Assembly (NCBI GenBank): GCA_034661015.1
Contig: JAYEKN010000022.1
Span: 1 to 26,766 of the forward strand
Direction of reading: 5' to 3'
DNA length: 26,766 nucleotides
Source of the DNA: Candidatus Cloacimonadota bacterium
GTDB lineage: Bacteria; Cloacimonadota; Cloacimonadia; JGIOTU-2
The notes under the pieces are model-generated. The model had not been told where the DNA came from. It saw only the letters and a list, made by a program, of their open reading frames with translations, and searched no databases. Positions 1 through 26,745 of this stretch are shown here, in pieces (position 1 is the stretch's first letter; every line of letters starts with the position of its first letter). The position numbers and the translations under genes were made by a program.

Positions 1-257
1 GAAAAATAAGATTGCATTTTTCAAAGAGAATATTCTTTGTGAATTTTGGAGAGAGGAATTGAGATTGGCAAAAGAGATGAAACAATTCAGCCTTTTTGCT
101 TTTTGTTTGAATTATGATCATTTTCATCTTTTAATCAAACCTAAAAATAAAATTGCAAATTATTCTCAAATTATGCATTTTATCAAAAGACATACATCAC
201 GGAATATAAACATTATTTTGGGATATAACAAAATTGATTTGGAAAAAATGATCAATC

Positions 258-365
258 CCACCGAAAATGACATTGGAATTCCATCCACCGAAAATGACGT
301 CGGAATCTCATCCCCCGAAAACGATGTGCAAATTCCCTCCACCGAAAACGATGTCGGAATTTTAT
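258..365. repeat. Tandem array of four imperfect 27-bp repeats (ccaccgaaaatgacNNcggaatNNcat), in frame inside the transposase-remnant ORF
   Basis: Direct reading gives units at 258-284, 285-311, 312-338 and 339-365. Each unit resembles the left arm of the palindrome that follows (cccccgaaggcgacgttggcc). Confidence 0.8.
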
Positions 366-403
366 CCCCCGAAGGCGACGTTGGCCAACGTCGCCTTCGG
401 GGG
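366..403. repeat. Perfect 38-bp palindrome cccccgaaggcgacgTTGGCCAAcgtcgccttcggggg (REP-like hairpin)
   Basis: Exact inverted repeat, 19+19 nt with no loop. It lies directly 3' of the 27-bp array and is related to a second palindrome at 25699-25724 (same TTGGCCAA centre, same ggcga/tcgcc arms). Confidence 0.85.
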
Positions 404-660
404 ATGAAATTCTCTAAATTCAATCTTCATCATTCTCCTTTTGTTCTTTAATTCCCTGCATCCATTAAACCAAGGCTTCGTTATAGAAAAAGAACTTCGC
501 CCGTGCAGGCAAGGATTGAAAAGCGATTGAACAATTCATAATTCATAATTATTATTTTTATTTGTGCTTGTTAAAAAAAATGTCTGAAATGATTGACAGA
601 TTTTGCCGAATAAAATTCTTTAGAAGAAGAAAAACAAAAAATAAATATTTCGGAGGAAAT

Positions 661-2458: not shown

Positions 2459-2705
2459 TATTTAGAGTCTATCCGTTAAGTATAGATTGGACGCAGATGA
2501 TCGCTGAAAAAATTGATTTACGCAGATAAAAATTTAATTACAAAAAAAGTAGTATCCCCGTTGAATGCTTTGTGTTTTAATATTCAACAGGGGTTTATCT
2601 GCCGAATCAGTGCTTGCCCTGTGGAATGTTTTTGCATTTATATTCCACTTGGGGTTTTTCTGCGTCGAATCATCCACCGGCTGACGGATGCACACTTTGT
2701 TAGGA
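2459..2705 (-). repeat. Copy C of a modular structured intergenic repeat family, inverted relative to copies A and B; the right end is diverged
   Basis: The left end tatttagagtctatccgttaag...ggacgcagatga aligns with the reverse complement of the 3' end of copy B (aattagagtctgtccgtaaattagggattcgacgcagatga). The internal hairpin ccccgttgaatgctttgtgttttaatattcaacagggg is the reverse complement of B's cccctgttgaatattaaaatacaaagcattcaacgggg. The gggg-ttt(a/t)tctgc(c/g)(g/t)cgaatca module is duplicated. Confidence 0.7.
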
Positions 2706-8247: not shown

Positions 8248-9612
8248 TCACATGAGCATTATCGTAGCTGTGGTCAGATAAACAAACACGCCGATAATAT
8301 CCGAAGTGGTGGTTACAATGGGACCTGTAGCCACAGCCGGATCAATATTAAATCTATTTAGAATTAGAGGGATAAGCGTCCCTGTGGTGGCAGCAATTAG
8401 CATCGCTATTGTAAGTGAAACGCCAAGTGTAAGCCCAAAATATAAAATTTTATCAAATTGATTATGATAAAATATCAAAGCAAAAACGCCGATCAGAATA
8501 CCATAAACGACTCCCAATATAAGCCCGATAATCACCTGCCCATAAAGGAGTTTTCCTATTTCTTTCACATTAACTCTTCCGGTGGCAAGTCCTCGCACCA
8601 CAATCGTGGAAGATTGTGTTCCTACATTTCCACCCATTCCTGCAACAATTGGCATAAATGCAGCGAGAAGTATGAATTGATTTATCAATTCCTGATGATT
8701 CATTACAATGAGCGAAACTATTAATCCGCCGAAAAAAGTTGCAAATAACCAAGGAAAACGAATACGAGTAGCCTGCAAAGGGGATTTGAGCAGAATTTCT
8801 CTATCTTTTCCTACACCAGCCATTTGGAGAAAATCCTCAGTCGCCTCTTCGCGAATAACATCAATAATATCATCCACAGTTACAATTCCGAGCAGAATCC
8901 CGTCATTATCCACCACCGGCAAAGCGAGAAAATCATATCTGCTGGTGATTCGTGCCACTTCTTCCTGATCCGTCTCCGGCTGAATGCTAATGACCTTTTT
9001 TATCATTATGTCTTTGAGCATTGTTGTGGGAGCCACAGTCAACAAATGGCGTATAGAAAGAACTCCGCGTAATTTATCATCTTCGTCAACAACGTAAATA
9101 TAAAAAAGCATTTCCGCTTTCTTATCTTCTCGAATAACCTTAATCGCATCCTGAACAGTTTGGTCTTCTCGAACCTTGAGAGGCAAGGGAGCCATAATTC
9201 CACCTGCAGATTCGGGTGGATACATCAGCAATTCTTCCAATCCTTCGGATTCTTTATTGTCCATCAAATCCAATACAGCATGCTCCAGTTCTTCGGGAAG
9301 TTGAGCAACAATATCCGCCTGATCGTCCAAAGCCATTTCATTTAACAATGTTACGATTACGGCAGGTTCCAAATTCGATAGAATCTCAATGAATATGTGC
9401 TCATCTAATTCAGTGAGAAATTCTGCTTTATAACGGTGATCATCAATTAATCCAAAAACAGTATCTCTTTCGGCTGGAGTAAAATTCCGGAAAACTCTTG
9501 CCAAGTCAGCCGGATGCGTCTTAACAATTATTTTTTTGAGGTTTGGCACAGCATTCCGCCTGATCAATCTTCGGAATGCATCAAGTAAAACGGAAAATTC
9601 TCTGTCTAACAT
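8248..9612 (-). CDS. mgtE: Magnesium transporter MgtE
   Basis: MgtE-N domain, tandem CBS region and a TM domain with the hallmark GMGGNVGTQSSTIVVRG motif. 454 aa. Confidence 0.9.
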   Translation of the reverse strand: MLDREFSVLLDAFRRLIRRNAVPNLKKIIVKTHPADLARVFRNFTPAERDTVFGLIDDHRYKAEFLTELDEHIFIEILSNLEPAVIVTLLNEMALDDQADIVAQLPEELEHAVLDLMDNKESEGLEELLMYPPESAGGIMAPLPLKVREDQTVQDAIKVIREDKKAEMLFYIYVVDEDDKLRGVLSIRHLLTVAPTTMLKDIMIKKVISIQPETDQEEVARITSRYDFLALPVVDNDGILLGIVTVDDIIDVIREEATEDFLQMAGVGKDREILLKSPLQATRIRFPWLFATFFGGLIVSLIVMNHQELINQFILLAAFMPIVAGMGGNVGTQSSTIVVRGLATGRVNVKEIGKLLYGQVIIGLILGVVYGILIGVFALIFYHNQFDKILYFGLTLGVSLTIAMLIAATTGTLIPLILNRFNIDPAVATGPIVTTTSDIIGVFVYLTTATIMLM

Positions 9613-9799: not shown

Positions 9800-10005
9800 A
9801 ATTAGTGTCCAGCCGTAAACTCGCATTTTTGCAATGATTCTCCGAATGTGATTCGACGCAGAAAAACACTGATTATGCTGATAAACGCTGATATTACACT
9901 TTTTACAAAAAATTTTTATCTTGCGAAAATTCACTTTTTTTCAGCGTGATGTTGTTTATCACATTCATCTGCGTCGAATCCCTACTTTACGGACAGACTC
10001 TAATT
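9800..10005 (+). repeat. Copy A of the modular structured intergenic repeat family (imperfect terminal inverted repeats AATTAG(A/T)GTC...CCGTAAA plus a long internal stem)
   Basis: Aligns with copy B (15721-15949) over its whole length except for a missing 38-nt hairpin module and an extra small gtgatgttgtttatcac hairpin. The 5' attcgacgcaga pairs with the 3' tctgcgtcgaat. The ends aattagtgtccagccgtaaa and tttacggacagactctaatt are inverted. Confidence 0.8.
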
Positions 10006-10021
10006 AGCGTTATATTTGTGA

Positions 10022-10078
10022 GTTGGAAAATCTTAAGTCAAGTTCAAAAAAACGGAATTTAACTCAAGATTTTCCAAC
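10022..10078 (-). terminator. Long hairpin (17-bp stem with one G-U) downstream of the rlmD stop; possible terminator with a weak U-tract
   Basis: gttggaaaatcttaagt...acttgagattttccaac (reverse complements). It lies 30 nt after the rlmD stop codon. There is no clean T-run on either side, so terminator function is uncertain. Confidence 0.4.
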
Positions 10079-10108
10079 TTCTCGAACGATACTTATTTTC
10101 AAAAAACC

Positions 10109-11569: not shown

Positions 11570-11605
11570 GCGAAAAATTTAAATCAATCCGCCAGTCGGC
11601 GGATT
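11570..11605 (-). terminator. Rho-independent terminator of the NMO-family gene: 8-bp GC-rich stem aatccgcc/ggcggatt, 4-nt loop, then a U-rich tract on the minus strand
   Basis: On the minus strand the order is stop - aaaacttgagtt - hairpin - gatttaaatttttcgc. Confidence 0.6.
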
Positions 11606-11617
11606 AACTCAAGTTTT

Positions 11618-12745
11618 CTATGCTAAAAGTGGCAATGGAACTTTAATTTCAGAAACTGCTTTATTGAATTCATCCTTCAAACTGTTGAACAACTCCTGAA
11701 CCGAGACAATTTTATCCGTGAGATATGCGTTTGCACCGGCAAAAGCAAATCCGTTTTTCAGTATTCCCTTTTGTGCATTCGTTAGTGCCAGAGCAATGCA
11801 GTAGGGAGAATTTTTGTAATCGCAGGTTTTTAAGCACTTCCAAGGGCAAGTATAGGGCTTTTTTACACCGGCAAAAACATCTTTCAAAAAATCATTTATA
11901 ATTGCTCTACCAGGTAATCCCACCGGACTATTAATGATTCCAATATCTTTTTTTGTACAATCAAGATATGCTTTTTTGAATTCGTAATCCGCATCACACT
12001 CATGAGTTGTTACAAATCTTGTACCCATTTGAATACCATTTGCTCCGAGATGAAGAAATTTTAAAATATCCGCTCCTGTATAAATTCCACCTGCTGCAAT
12101 GAGCGGTATTTTTTTGTTACATTTCATTTCGTAGATTTCAACAATATTTCGAACAGCAGGCAAAATATTTTCAAGAGAGAATTCAGGATTCTCGATTTGA
12201 TCAAGTTTAAAGCCGAGATGCCCACCTGCTTTGGGTCCTTCAATCACAACCACATCCGGTAGATAATTAAATTTTTTATCCCAAATCTTAAATATAATAT
12301 TAGTAGCTCTGGCGGATGAAACTATCACCCCAACTTTTGTTTTCATTTTTTTTAGATAATTAATATTTAATTTTTTAGGAAGTTTCAGGGGAAGACCAGC
12401 CCCAAGAAAAATAATATCAATTTCTTCGTCTAATGCTATTTCAACAATTTCATCAAAATCTGATGCTGCCACCATGATATTCAAACCGAGAATCCCATTT
12501 GTCATTTTTTTAGCTTGTCGAATTTCAGCTCGAAGGGCGTCTTGGTTTGATTTTTTGTAACCACCTTTAAAACCTGATTTCACCAATCCCAAACCAACAG
12601 ATGAAATCACTCCAATCCCACCTTGTTCGGCAACTGCTGCTGCTAAACGAGACAGGGAAATTCCCACACCCATTCCGCCTTGAATAATAGGTTTTTCTGC
12701 AACTAAATTTCCAATCCTTAATTTTGGCATAACTTGTTTGATCAC
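11618..12745 (-). CDS. Nitronate monooxygenase (NMO, 2-nitropropane dioxygenase; FabK-like) family FMN oxidoreductase with a C-terminal Cys cluster
   Basis: GTG start at 12745 lies 7 nt after RBS aaggag. NMO-family glycine-rich FMN-barrel motifs are present (IIQGGMGVGIS, GGIGVISS, IAAGGIYTG). The C-terminus carries C-x3-C-x3-C-x7-C (CPWKCLKTCDYKNSPYC). Confidence 0.65.
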   Translation of the reverse strand: MIKQVMPKLRIGNLVAEKPIIQGGMGVGISLSRLAAAVAEQGGIGVISSVGLGLVKSGFKGGYKKSNQDALRAEIRQAKKMTNGILGLNIMVAASDFDEIVEIALDEEIDIIFLGAGLPLKLPKKLNINYLKKMKTKVGVIVSSARATNIIFKIWDKKFNYLPDVVVIEGPKAGGHLGFKLDQIENPEFSLENILPAVRNIVEIYEMKCNKKIPLIAAGGIYTGADILKFLHLGANGIQMGTRFVTTHECDADYEFKKAYLDCTKKDIGIINSPVGLPGRAIINDFLKDVFAGVKKPYTCPWKCLKTCDYKNSPYCIALALTNAQKGILKNGFAFAGANAYLTDKIVSVQELFNSLKDEFNKAVSEIKVPLPLLA

Positions 12746-14556: not shown

Positions 14557-15552
14557 TTAATAATGTACTTTCTTTTCTAATCTTTTTTGAAGTAAAGTCA
14601 GACTGAGAATTATGAAAAACAAAACGAGAGCAATTGTGCTCGCATAGCTTAAATCCATAGCCTCCCCTAATCCTGTATCATAAATATAATAAACAATCAC
14701 TTTTGTTGTTCCGAGTGGACCTCCCACCGGTGGACCAGTCATTAAATACACCTGACTAAATACCTGAAAAGTCGTAATCGTAGTCATCAACAGCACATAA
14801 AAAGTTGTGGGGGAAATTAGCGGAACAGTTATTTTAAAAAATTGTTTAAATTTACTTGCTCCATCAATTTCGGCGGCTTCATAATAAATTTCCGGAATAT
14901 TTTGCAATCCGGCGAGGTAAACGATCGTATTGTATCCCATACCTCTCCAAATACAAACGATAATAATTGCGAACAGAGCTAATGATGGTCCTCCAAAAAT
15001 GATGTATAACATACTAAAACTTGCCCCGGTTTGTGTTGCCAATATTTTTAACCAATGGGTCAGATTAATGCCAACCGTACCGAGTAAAAGATCAAAAACA
15101 CCTCTACTCTCCGAAAGCCAACCCAACCCGTGAATTCCAAAAATGGACAGAAAACTATTCATCAAACCGCTTTGAGGTGAAAATATTAACTTCCATACAA
15201 TTGAGATTGCAACAAGTGAAGTAACTGTGGGAATAAAATAAGTAGTTCTAAAAAAGCCAGAAAGTTTTTTGACTTTATTTAAAAGGTTTGCGAAAAATAA
15301 AGAAAGGATAAGTGTAATTGGTACAACAAAAACAGCAAGATAAAATGTGTTTATTAGGGAATGCCAAAATTGGGCATCTTTAAATAATTTTATATAGTTT
15401 TCAAAAGCGATAAATCCTTCAGGTCCCCTGATCGTCCAATTAAAAAAACTTAAAATAAAAGATAAAACTATCGGTATAAATCGAAAAAAAAGGACGATAA
15501 TTGCAGCTGGTAAAATGTAAATAAAGGGTGAAAATTCTTTTTTGCTTTTCAT
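14557..15552 (-). CDS. Carbohydrate-type ABC transporter permease (MalF/UgpA-like)
   Basis: EAA-loop EAAEIDGASKFKQFFKITVPLISP; polytopic. It ends 1 nt before the next permease. Confidence 0.8.
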   Translation of the reverse strand: MKSKKEFSPFIYILPAAIIVLFFRFIPIVLSFILSFFNWTIRGPEGFIAFENYIKLFKDAQFWHSLINTFYLAVFVVPITLILSLFFANLLNKVKKLSGFFRTTYFIPTVTSLVAISIVWKLIFSPQSGLMNSFLSIFGIHGLGWLSESRGVFDLLLGTVGINLTHWLKILATQTGASFSMLYIIFGGPSLALFAIIIVCIWRGMGYNTIVYLAGLQNIPEIYYEAAEIDGASKFKQFFKITVPLISPTTFYVLLMTTITTFQVFSQVYLMTGPPVGGPLGTTKVIVYYIYDTGLGEAMDLSYASTIALVLFFIILSLTLLQKRLEKKVHY

Positions 15553-15576: not shown

Positions 15577-15650
15577 TGGCTGGGATGGAAGGAATCGAAC
15601 CCTCATCTACGGAACCAGAATCCGCCGTCCTGCCGTTAGACTACATCCCA
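15577..15650 (-). tRNA. tRNA-Gln (anticodon CTG)
   Basis: Minus-strand TGGGATGTAGTCTAACGGCAGGACGGCGGATTCTGGTTCCGTAGATGAGGGTTCGATTCCTTCCATCCCAGCCA. The 7-bp acceptor, TTCGA T-loop and anticodon loop TTCTGGT fold by hand. CCA is encoded. Confidence 0.8.
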
Positions 15651-15720
15651 GTAAAAGATTGTGGCAAATCCTCAAAAGAGAAATTTATAAAAATTCGTGT
15701 AACTCGTTTTAAAATGAATC

Positions 15721-15949
15721 AATTAGTGCCCATCTGTAAACTCGCATTTTTGCAATAATTCTCCGAAGGTAATTCGACGCAGATAAACACTGATTATGCT
15801 GATAAACCCCTGTTGAATATTAAAATACAAAGCATTCAACGGGGCAAGCGCTGATAATACAGTTTTTATAAAAAAATTTTATCTTGCGAAAATCGGTTTT
15901 TTCAGTGTTCATCTGCGTCGAATCCCTAATTTACGGACAGACTCTAATT
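15721..15949 (+). repeat. Copy B of the modular structured intergenic repeat family, lying between the two tRNA-Gln genes
   Basis: The 5' end aattagtgcccatctgtaaa and 3' end tttacggacagactctaatt are inverted. The long stem attcgacgcagataaacactga/tcagtgttcatctgcgtcgaat pairs at 21 of 22 positions. The internal hairpin module is cccctgttgaat...attcaacgggg. The element ends 4 nt from the CCA end of tRNA-Gln(TTG). Confidence 0.8.
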
Positions 15950-15953
15950 AAAA

Positions 15954-16028
15954 TGGCAGGGTCGGTAGGAGTCGAACCTACGAATGCAGAGACCAAAACC
16001 CTGTGCCTTGCCGCTTGGCGACGACCCT
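15954..16028 (-). tRNA. tRNA-Gln (anticodon TTG)
   Basis: Minus-strand AGGGTCGTCGCCAAGCGGCAAGGCACAGGGTTTTGGTCTCTGCATTCGTAGGTTCGACTCCTACCGACCCTGCCA. Perfect acceptor and T stems; anticodon loop TTTTGGT. Confidence 0.75.
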
Positions 16029-16059
16029 GTGCAAAAAAAATGAAATAAATCTGAGATAA

Positions 16060-16151
16060 TGGCGGAGAGACAGGGATTCGAACCCTGGGTGAGGTTCTAT
16101 CCCCACACACGCTTAGCAGGCGCGCACCTTCAGCCACTCGGTCATCTCTCC
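16060..16151 (-). tRNA. tRNA-Ser (anticodon GCT), class II with a long variable arm
   Basis: Minus-strand GGAGAGATGACCGAGTGGCTGAAGGTGCGCGCCTGCTAAGCGTGTGTGGGGATAGAACCTCACCCAGGGTTCGAATCCCTGTCTCTCCGCCA. Anticodon loop CTGCTAA. Confidence 0.8.
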
Positions 16152-16219
16152 CGTAATACATTTTCCCAAAGGGTGAACACACCCGATTTAGAAAAGTGAA
16201 CTGCCTAAAAAATTGCAAA

Positions 16220-16307
16220 TGGCGGAGGAGGTAGGATTCGAACCCACGGATGCTTGCACATCAACGGTTTTCAAGACCGCCGCCTTCAACCACTCGACCA
16301 CTCCTCC
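16220..16307 (-). tRNA. tRNA-Ser (anticodon TGA), class II
   Basis: Minus-strand GGAGGAGTGGTCGAGTGGTTGAAGGCGGCGGTCTTGAAAACCGTTGATGTGCAAGCATCCGTGGGTTCGAATCCTACCTCCTCCGCCA. Anticodon loop CTTGAAA. Confidence 0.8.
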
Positions 16308-26688: not shown

Positions 26689-26700
26689 TTTAGAAGAAAA

Positions 26701-26745
26701 CTTGAGTCAATTCACCTTTTGTTGGATTGACTTGAGTTTTCTATT
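26701..26745 (+). terminator. Rho-independent terminator: 11-bp perfect stem cttgagtcaat/attgacttgag followed by TTTTCTATTT
   Basis: It begins 13 nt after the SPFH-gene stop codon. The loop is 14 nt. Confidence 0.6.

Follow-up and report, generated by a model that had tools for sequence, protein, structure and literature searches.

Intergenic repeats of a Candidatus Cloacimonadota contig as probable MITEs derived from an IS1502-like, IS5-family insertion sequence

The Correia elements of Neisseria and the ERIC/IRU repeats of enterobacteria are intergenic sequences of 100-250 nt that have inverted termini, fold as one long hairpin and are often co-transcribed. Length variants of both arise through internal insertions or deletions. 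Correia elements duplicate TA upon insertion, and we know of no matching transposase for either Correia or ERIC. Two further families are found in Streptococcus pneumoniae: BOX elements are modular, with a varying number of internal modules and, to our knowledge, no terminal inverted repeats of the transposon type, and RUP is a MITE-like IS derivative linked to an IS630-family element.

Here, three intergenic repeats (copies A, B, and C) were analyzed on a 26.8-kb contig of a Candidatus Cloacimonadota bacterium. This whole stretch (26,766 bp, 36% G+C) is referred to below as the window. An earlier reading of the sequence alone (the sequence-only reading) had assigned the repeats to an architecture of the MITE or BOX/RUP/Correia/ERIC type. 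Copies A-C are very probably MITEs, non-autonomous derivatives of an IS1502-like IS5-family IS of ∼0.9 kb with two frames joined by frameshift. The MITE interpretation was thus borne out and sharpened by three observations: the termini recur on a complete IS in a metagenome contig, a 4-bp duplication is well supported for the superfamily, and the site of copy C is empty in relatives. Given that the termini are those of an IS5-family IS, the repeats represent a new family of well-known mobile DNA and not a new type of element. The sequence-only reading had also held that such a family was not obviously described for an AT-rich, T9SS-bearing lineage. This fits a literature search in which the terminus sequence was encountered only in unrelated primer lists and nothing relevant was found on Cloacimonas repeats.

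Copies, termini and target sites

The three copies are homologous in all pairwise comparisons (blastn E = 1e-37 for A vs C and for B vs C; nhmmer E = 1e-57 to 1e-81), and MAFFT, blastn, nhmmer, and a repeat finder each recover all of them. Over aligned positions, B and C are 91% identical and A is 83% identical to either of the other two; the elements measure 198-233 nt (Table 1). The three homologous intergenic copies proposed from the sequence alone are therefore supported by alignment, blastn, and nhmmer at a level far above chance. Alignment likewise confirmed that two copies are direct (B and C) and one is inverted (A). All three lie essentially where they had first been placed; the end of copy A, put at 2705, was too far by 5 nt if the flank is included and by 9 nt if it is not. 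The copies contain only short, unconserved open reading frames, as had been claimed for a non-coding element, and the concatenated six-frame pseudo-peptides of all copies found no relatives among 5.8 billion proteins. Copies A-C thus share the small size (<1 kb) and the absence of coding capacity that a MITE requires.

Table 1. Coordinates of the repeats, their parts and the Y1 gene palindrome (window positions unless a locus is named)
Feature	Position	Strand	Remarks
Copy A, MITE proper	2464-2696	-	233 nt; inverted relative to B and C; most diverged; nhmmer E = 2.8e-69; stop codon of a T9SS-tailed gene (2451) on one side, terminator hairpin of that gene (2712-2743) on the other
Copy B, MITE proper	9804-10001	+	198 nt; lacks the 38-nt hairpin module; tRNA U5-methyltransferase-like gene with its own downstream hairpin (10021-10079) on one side, region upstream of mgtE on the other
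Copy C, MITE proper	15725-15945	+	221 nt; 4 nt downstream of tRNA-Gln(ttg), before tRNA-Gln(ctg)
Right terminus TTTACGGACAGACTCT	9986-10001 (B); 15930-15945 (C)	+	Same in both; 2 mismatches in A
Terminal inverted repeat of A, AGAG type	2464-2483	+	AGAGTCTATCCGTTAAGTAT
Flanks of A	ATTT 2460-2463; TTGT 2697-2700		Duplication no longer recognizable
Flanks of B	AATT 9800-9803; AATT 10002-10005		Candidate target-site duplication
Flanks of C	AATT 15721-15724; AATT 15946-15949		Candidate target-site duplication
Inner motif pair in A	2659-2670/2486-2497		ATTCGACGCAGA / TCTGCGTCGAAT
Inner motif pair in B	9851-9862/9968-9979		ATTCGACGCAGA / TCTGCGTCGAAT
Inner motif pair in C	15772-15783/15912-15923	+	ATTCGACGCAGA, partner TCTGCGTCGAAT
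38-nt hairpin module, first in A	2556-2593	+	CCCCGTTGAAT...ATTCAACAGGGG; regex scan
Second, diverged hairpin module in A	2617-2653	+	Part of a ∼61-nt tandem duplication (hairpin plus TTTxTCTGCGTCGAAT arm)
38-nt hairpin module in C	15807-15844	+	92% complementary to the module of A
Small hairpin private to B	9946-9962	+	GTGATGTTGTTTATCAC; inside a ∼19-nt insertion
Mid-gene palindrome of Y1 genes	357-412; L098 4314-4357; L103 4081-4120; L202 5350-5387; L204 5402-5449		GAAGGCGACGTTGG / CCAACGTCGCCTTC

The element proper extends from AG(T/A)GTC..GTAAA to TTTACGGACAGACTCT and is flanked by 4 bp of A/T sequence (AATT in B and C). The ends of B and C are imperfect inverted repeats, as first read, with 15-16 of 20 positions complementary. 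Because AATT is its own reverse complement, a duplication in B and C alone is indistinguishable from a longer inverted repeat. Of 50 non-redundant short metagenome elements that share the terminus, 27 have AATT on both sides, 7 have identical non-palindromic flanks (ATTT/ATTT or AAAT/AAAT), and 1 has inverted flanks. In addition, neighboring tandem elements in metagenome contigs overlap by exactly the 4-nt flank. Together, the flank counts and the exact overlaps support a 4-bp AWWT duplication and insertion beside existing copies. On this comparison, a target duplication of 4 bp appears well supported for the superfamily sharing the termini, and copies A-C themselves are only consistent with it.

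Between the termini, the inner motif ATTCGACGCAGA / TCTGCGTCGAAT has six matches, compared with 0.08 expected. The stem of which this motif is the constant part is ∼23 bp with one mismatch in C, 13 bp in B, and 12 bp with a mismatch in A, so the internal stem of 21-22 bp described earlier holds for C and not for the other two copies. The remaining modules are likewise present. By regex scan, the 38-nt hairpin is present in two of the three copies (those at 2459 and 15721, not that at 9800), and the hairpin GTGATGTTGTTTATCAC is confined to the copy at 9800. The copy at 2459 carries the ∼61-nt tandem duplication, which matches itself at 77% over 57 nt (blastn).

The surroundings of copy C allowed orthologous sites to be compared, as the sequence-only reading had suggested. 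The cluster of tRNA-Ser, -Ser, -Gln, and -Gln genes beside an ABC permease gene (14557-15552; product 93-80% identical to Candidatus Cloacimonetes proteins) is kept in relatives. In the window, 303 nt separate tRNA-Gln(ttg) from tRNA-Gln(ctg): the element accounts for 221 nt, its AATT flanks for 8 nt, and the spacer itself for 74 nt. Between the same two genes, the spacer is 74 nt long in L090, a relative with 93% protein identity, and 13 nt long in L086, L087, and L089 (80% relatives). Judged from these lengths, site C is empty in all four loci, the spacers being too diverged for a base-exact junction.

The same tRNA cluster was observed to be a recurrent insertion site (window 15577-16307; L092/L093 8636-9818; L086 9608-9972). 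In a 76% relative (L092/L093), it contains a GIY-YIG gene (8901-9152) and the tRNA order is rearranged. In an 80% relative, ∼7 kb of extra genes separate the cluster from the NAD kinase gene. Beside copy B, the mgtE gene (8248-9612, minus strand) had its best matches in Marinimicrobia/Fidelibacterota (62-67% identity) in a pattern-based scan of species-representative genomes. The only Cloacimonadota match listed was at 53%, although the neighboring genes are clearly of Cloacimonadota type. The Marinimicrobia mgtE loci (≤67% identity) show no synteny with the window. Horizontal transfer could explain these matches, as could a sampling effect of scanning by pattern.

Relatives in metagenomes and an IS5-family partner

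Metagenome contigs were searched with a 20-nt pattern, TTWACGGAYAGACTCTAAWT, in which the right terminus TTTACGGACAGACTCT is extended by a 4-nt AAWT flank. The pattern matched 95 contigs, many of them at contig ends. Within these contigs, 55 pairs of termini face inward at distances of 83-401 nt and bound short elements (∼50 different), the interiors of which fall into ∼17 mutually unrelated subfamilies. The largest of these belongs to a Bacteroidetes MAG from Crystal Geyser. The subfamily present in the window has a full-length member at a single locus, L181 (6356-6546; nhmmer 108 bits, 78-82% identity), which comes from an independent data set and lacks the 38-nt hairpin module. Head-to-tail arrays of two or three MITEs with one AATT per junction were observed at L187 (5472-5797), L174 (1579-1991), and L150 (2428-2824). 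Further such arrays occur at L124 (8868-9048) and L122 (3087-3395), and different subfamilies are mixed within one array.

A strict pattern combining the inner arm with the right terminus had no match in genome or metagenome collections, viral contigs had no match to the terminus alone or to the hairpin module alone, and a plasmid DNA search gave no match. A blastn and nhmmer comparison of the copies with fetched loci totaling 1.5 Mb yielded nothing beyond contig ends of the same organism, and terminus-like sites (≤2 mismatches) were absent from the fetched loci. Given that ∼0.17 Mb of related Cloacimonadota DNA contained neither a copy nor a terminus-like site, the expansion appears specific to this lineage. 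Exact look-up of proteins encoded near the repeats yielded nothing but short Logan contigs (k=31; SRR26901925 and SRR26901930), which stop inside or near the repeats and show no empty site at strain level; those from two samples both end at window position 15765, within copy C. The longest exact word common to copies A-C is ≤25 nt. Breaks at 15765 in the absence of a longer shared word provide a weak hint of further copies.

A metagenome contig contains an autonomous element that shares the termini and codes for an IS5-family transposase. Locus L111 (272-1152) carries the only complete IS recovered with the window termini, 873 bp in length or 881 bp with its 4-nt flanks. Its OrfA corresponds to DUF4096 (89.5 bits) and is followed by a slippery A-AAA-GGG run and then a DDE frame. 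The frameshift-joined protein scored 234 bits against NCBIfam model NF033580 (IS5 family transposase; cutoff 110), aligning to positions 2-258 of 258, and 88 and 65 bits against Pfam DUF4096 and DDE_Tnp_1, respectively. The predicted transposase belongs to the IS5 family, its score being above the cutoff of the curated model. The closest named IS is IS1502 of Leptospira interrogans, with 59% amino acid identity over 97% of the protein. IS1502, examined here in three plasmid copies, measures 881 bp and shares the A-AAA-GGG slippery site with L111. Its ends (AGAGCTTGTCCCAAAAC) agree with those of the window (AGAGTCTGTCCGTAAAC) at 13 of 18 aligned positions. The L111 IS and the window family have their termini in common, but not their interiors. 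No IS5-type transposase was detected in the window by tblastn.

With regard to its flanks, the L111 IS has inverted tetranucleotides (ATTT and AAAT) and no direct duplication. It is thus among the few exceptions to the 4-bp rule; the other inverted pair (ATTT/AAAT) belongs to one short element.

Folding, transcripts and the Y1 gene

All three copies fold far below shuffled energies on both strands, with z values of -9.0/-7.2 for C (as RNA) and, for DNA folding, of -5.0 in B and -4.2 in A. These energies speak for a structured RNA family, either non-coding RNA genes or cis-regulatory RNAs, with a fold under selection, and in respect of folding the earlier description of the repeats as highly structured holds. 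It is not matched by covariation, however: the RNAalifold consensus of four copies contains 43 pairs without a single compensatory change, and its covariation term is positive (unfavorable). Comparison with Rfam, also suggested by the sequence-only reading, brought no family near threshold. Across the whole window only the four tRNAs reached the gathering threshold, and permissive scans of the three repeat regions yielded 8-28 bits against thresholds of 43-211, the only matches being generic long-hairpin microRNA models at 11-28 bits. Moreover, the inner stem, 23 bp in one copy, is reduced to 12-13 bp in the others, the two strands fold equally well, as inverted DNA repeats would, and the termini belong to a transposase-encoding IS. 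Given the lack of compensatory changes and of any Rfam family near threshold, the structure is what inverted DNA repeats give by themselves. The strong hairpins are a property of the DNA repeat and do not in themselves point to a selected RNA fold, and an RNA family under selection is very improbable. A different proposal, compatible with a MITE origin, is that the elements are kept for an action on transcripts, their hairpin modules and U-rich tracts serving as terminators, processing sites, or stabilizers. In its favor, A, B, and C all have one orientation relative to the direction of the flanking genes, although agreement of 3 of 3 would arise by chance with a probability of 0.25. Copy A also lies between a stop codon and the terminator of that gene, and copy C within a tRNA gene cluster. 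Read in this direction, the modules have the form CCCC..GGGG with TTTAT/TTTTT behind it, and the module is 92% conserved between A and C, compared with 83% for the rest of the element. On the other hand, the module is missing from copy B and from the L181 element, the terminator scan misses the modules (their loops are 14-15 nt), and compensatory changes are again zero. Promoter and terminator scans inside the elements gave nothing that exceeded shuffles. A transcript role is considered unlikely, though less so than a selected RNA fold.

The remaining alternatives concern how the copies came to be in the window. The contig begins within a gene (2-451, plus strand) for a RAYT-like Y1/HUH transposase, and the elements, long palindromes as REPINs are, might on this account be palindromic doublets moved by its product. 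The 149-aa partial protein matches Y1_Tnp (31 bits) and is most like the NCBIfam model for REP-associated tyrosine transposases. Nevertheless, its C terminus is truncated, and by alignment the missing half carries the catalytic tyrosine region; no element terminus lies beside the gene; and its intact relatives reside in CRISPR-Cas operons between cas3 and cas1, without flanking REPs. The termini, furthermore, match a DDE-type IS, and the superfamily has a target duplication, a mark that Y1 transposition does not leave. The RAYT-like gene was therefore rejected as the mobilizer, given its missing catalytic half, the absence of adjacent termini, and its CRISPR-linked relatives, and a REPIN-like origin is given hardly any weight. 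Least probable of all, to the point of being negligible, is a local segmental duplication or chance similarity of AT-rich DNA. The window is indeed AT-rich, and three copies are known in this genome. However, E-values are 1e-37 and below, a fourth copy lies on an unrelated contig, and the termini recur in 95 contigs. Given that the genes flanking A, B, and C are unrelated to one another, there is no segmental duplication of the kind that the sequence-only reading had named as evidence against an element family.

The Y1 gene and its relatives show features of their own. Intact relatives were found at L098 (4001-4639), L103 (3739-4374), L202 (5001-5621), and L204 (5001-5771). They score ∼80 bits against a cutoff of 80 for the REP-associated tyrosine transposase model and have no PADLOC match. 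The gene order is cas8c-cas7-cas5-cas3-Y1-cas1-cas2-cas4 in three of the four clusters, and the fourth Y1 gene lies beside cas gene remnants; a quick literature search gave no account of a Y1 gene within a type I adaptation module. All these Y1 genes contain a near-perfect mid-gene DNA palindrome of 38-56 nt (Table 1), which encodes the conserved peptide EGDVG|QRRLR. In L098, a change in one arm has a compensating change in the opposite arm (GAGGTTGG / CCAACCTC). In the window the palindrome is preceded by a tandem repeat (258-381) of 4.6 copies, the 27-nt unit of which equals half of the palindrome. The pattern suggests a selected DNA or RNA hairpin within the coding sequence.

A second, smaller family of AT-rich hairpins sharing AACTCAAG(A)TTTTC is present just downstream of genes at window positions 10021-10079, 11574-11621, and 26695-26744. 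At the first of these hairpins, the Logan contigs of two samples both break off in the loop (window 10046), so this family may also be repeated in the genome. These hairpins could be terminator-like repeats.

Proposed origin and comparison with known systems

The derivation of copies A-C from an IS5-family IS can be described by the following minimal model. Each element would consist of a non-coding, variable interior between imperfect terminal inverted repeats of 16-20 nt, namely AGTGTCCAGCCGTAAA and, on the opposite side in the inward direction, AGAGTCTGTCCGTAAA. A DDE transposase supplied in trans would bind both termini through its N-terminal DUF4096 helix-turn-helix region, excise or copy the element, and insert it at an A/T tetranucleotide (AWWT, mostly AATT), where a 4-bp staggered cut would afterwards be duplicated. 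Given that AATT, once duplicated, again offers a target, later copies would often land beside earlier ones. The hairpins would arise from the terminal repeats, the inner repeat ATTCGACGCAGA, and optional palindromic modules, the latter gained through internal insertion or tandem duplication. That such a transposase acts in this genome, and any current activity, we infer. The copies differ by 9-17% (83-91% identity), which gives no indication of recent activity.

A wider proposal is put forward tentatively and, taken as a whole, is more doubtful than not by some distance. The 16-20-nt terminus may define a large MITE superfamily, apparently new to the literature searched, in at least two FCB phyla (Cloacimonadota and Bacteroidota), with dozens of subfamilies of unrelated interior, IS1502-like transposases, AATT tandem arrays, and several copies per 10 kb. 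As part of the same proposal, copies with GC-clamped hairpin modules may have been co-opted in the Cloacimonadota lineage as transcript terminators or processing signals.

For practical purposes, repeat annotation of Cloacimonadota and related uncultured FCB bacteria gains a defined element, characterized by its terminus, by duplication of 4 bp (AWWT), and by a partner of the IS5 family. The repeats account for short-read assemblies of these genomes breaking in intergenic DNA, and their insertion polymorphisms are usable as strain markers. The elements are otherwise ordinary mobile DNA, and a larger question is raised only if the hairpin modules act on transcripts.

Among known systems, the closest resemblance is to MITEs derived from IS5-family ISs, with IS1502 as the nearest named autonomous relative, the ends of which (AGAGnnTGTCCnnAAAC) resemble those in the window at 13 of 18 positions. 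The interior of the window family is, by contrast, unrelated to that of IS1502 or the L111 IS, and the hosts are Cloacimonadota and Bacteroidota here but Spirochaetota for IS1502. The likeness to Correia and ERIC/IRU extends to size, inverted termini, fold, intergenic site, and length variants and is architectural only, no relationship in sequence being known. The superfamily duplicates 4-bp AWWT where Correia duplicates TA and, unlike Correia and ERIC, its termini are shared with a complete IS. A modular build is common to the window elements and BOX, and a MITE-like derivation from an IS to the window elements and RUP, but the modules, the termini, and the IS family all differ from those of BOX and RUP. 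Finally, the palindromic intergenic repeats and the RAYT-like gene fragment in the window recall REP/REPIN systems, from which the family is distinguished by termini that are not self-folding REP hairpins, by a DDE enzyme as the matching mobilizer, and by the target duplication of its superfamily.
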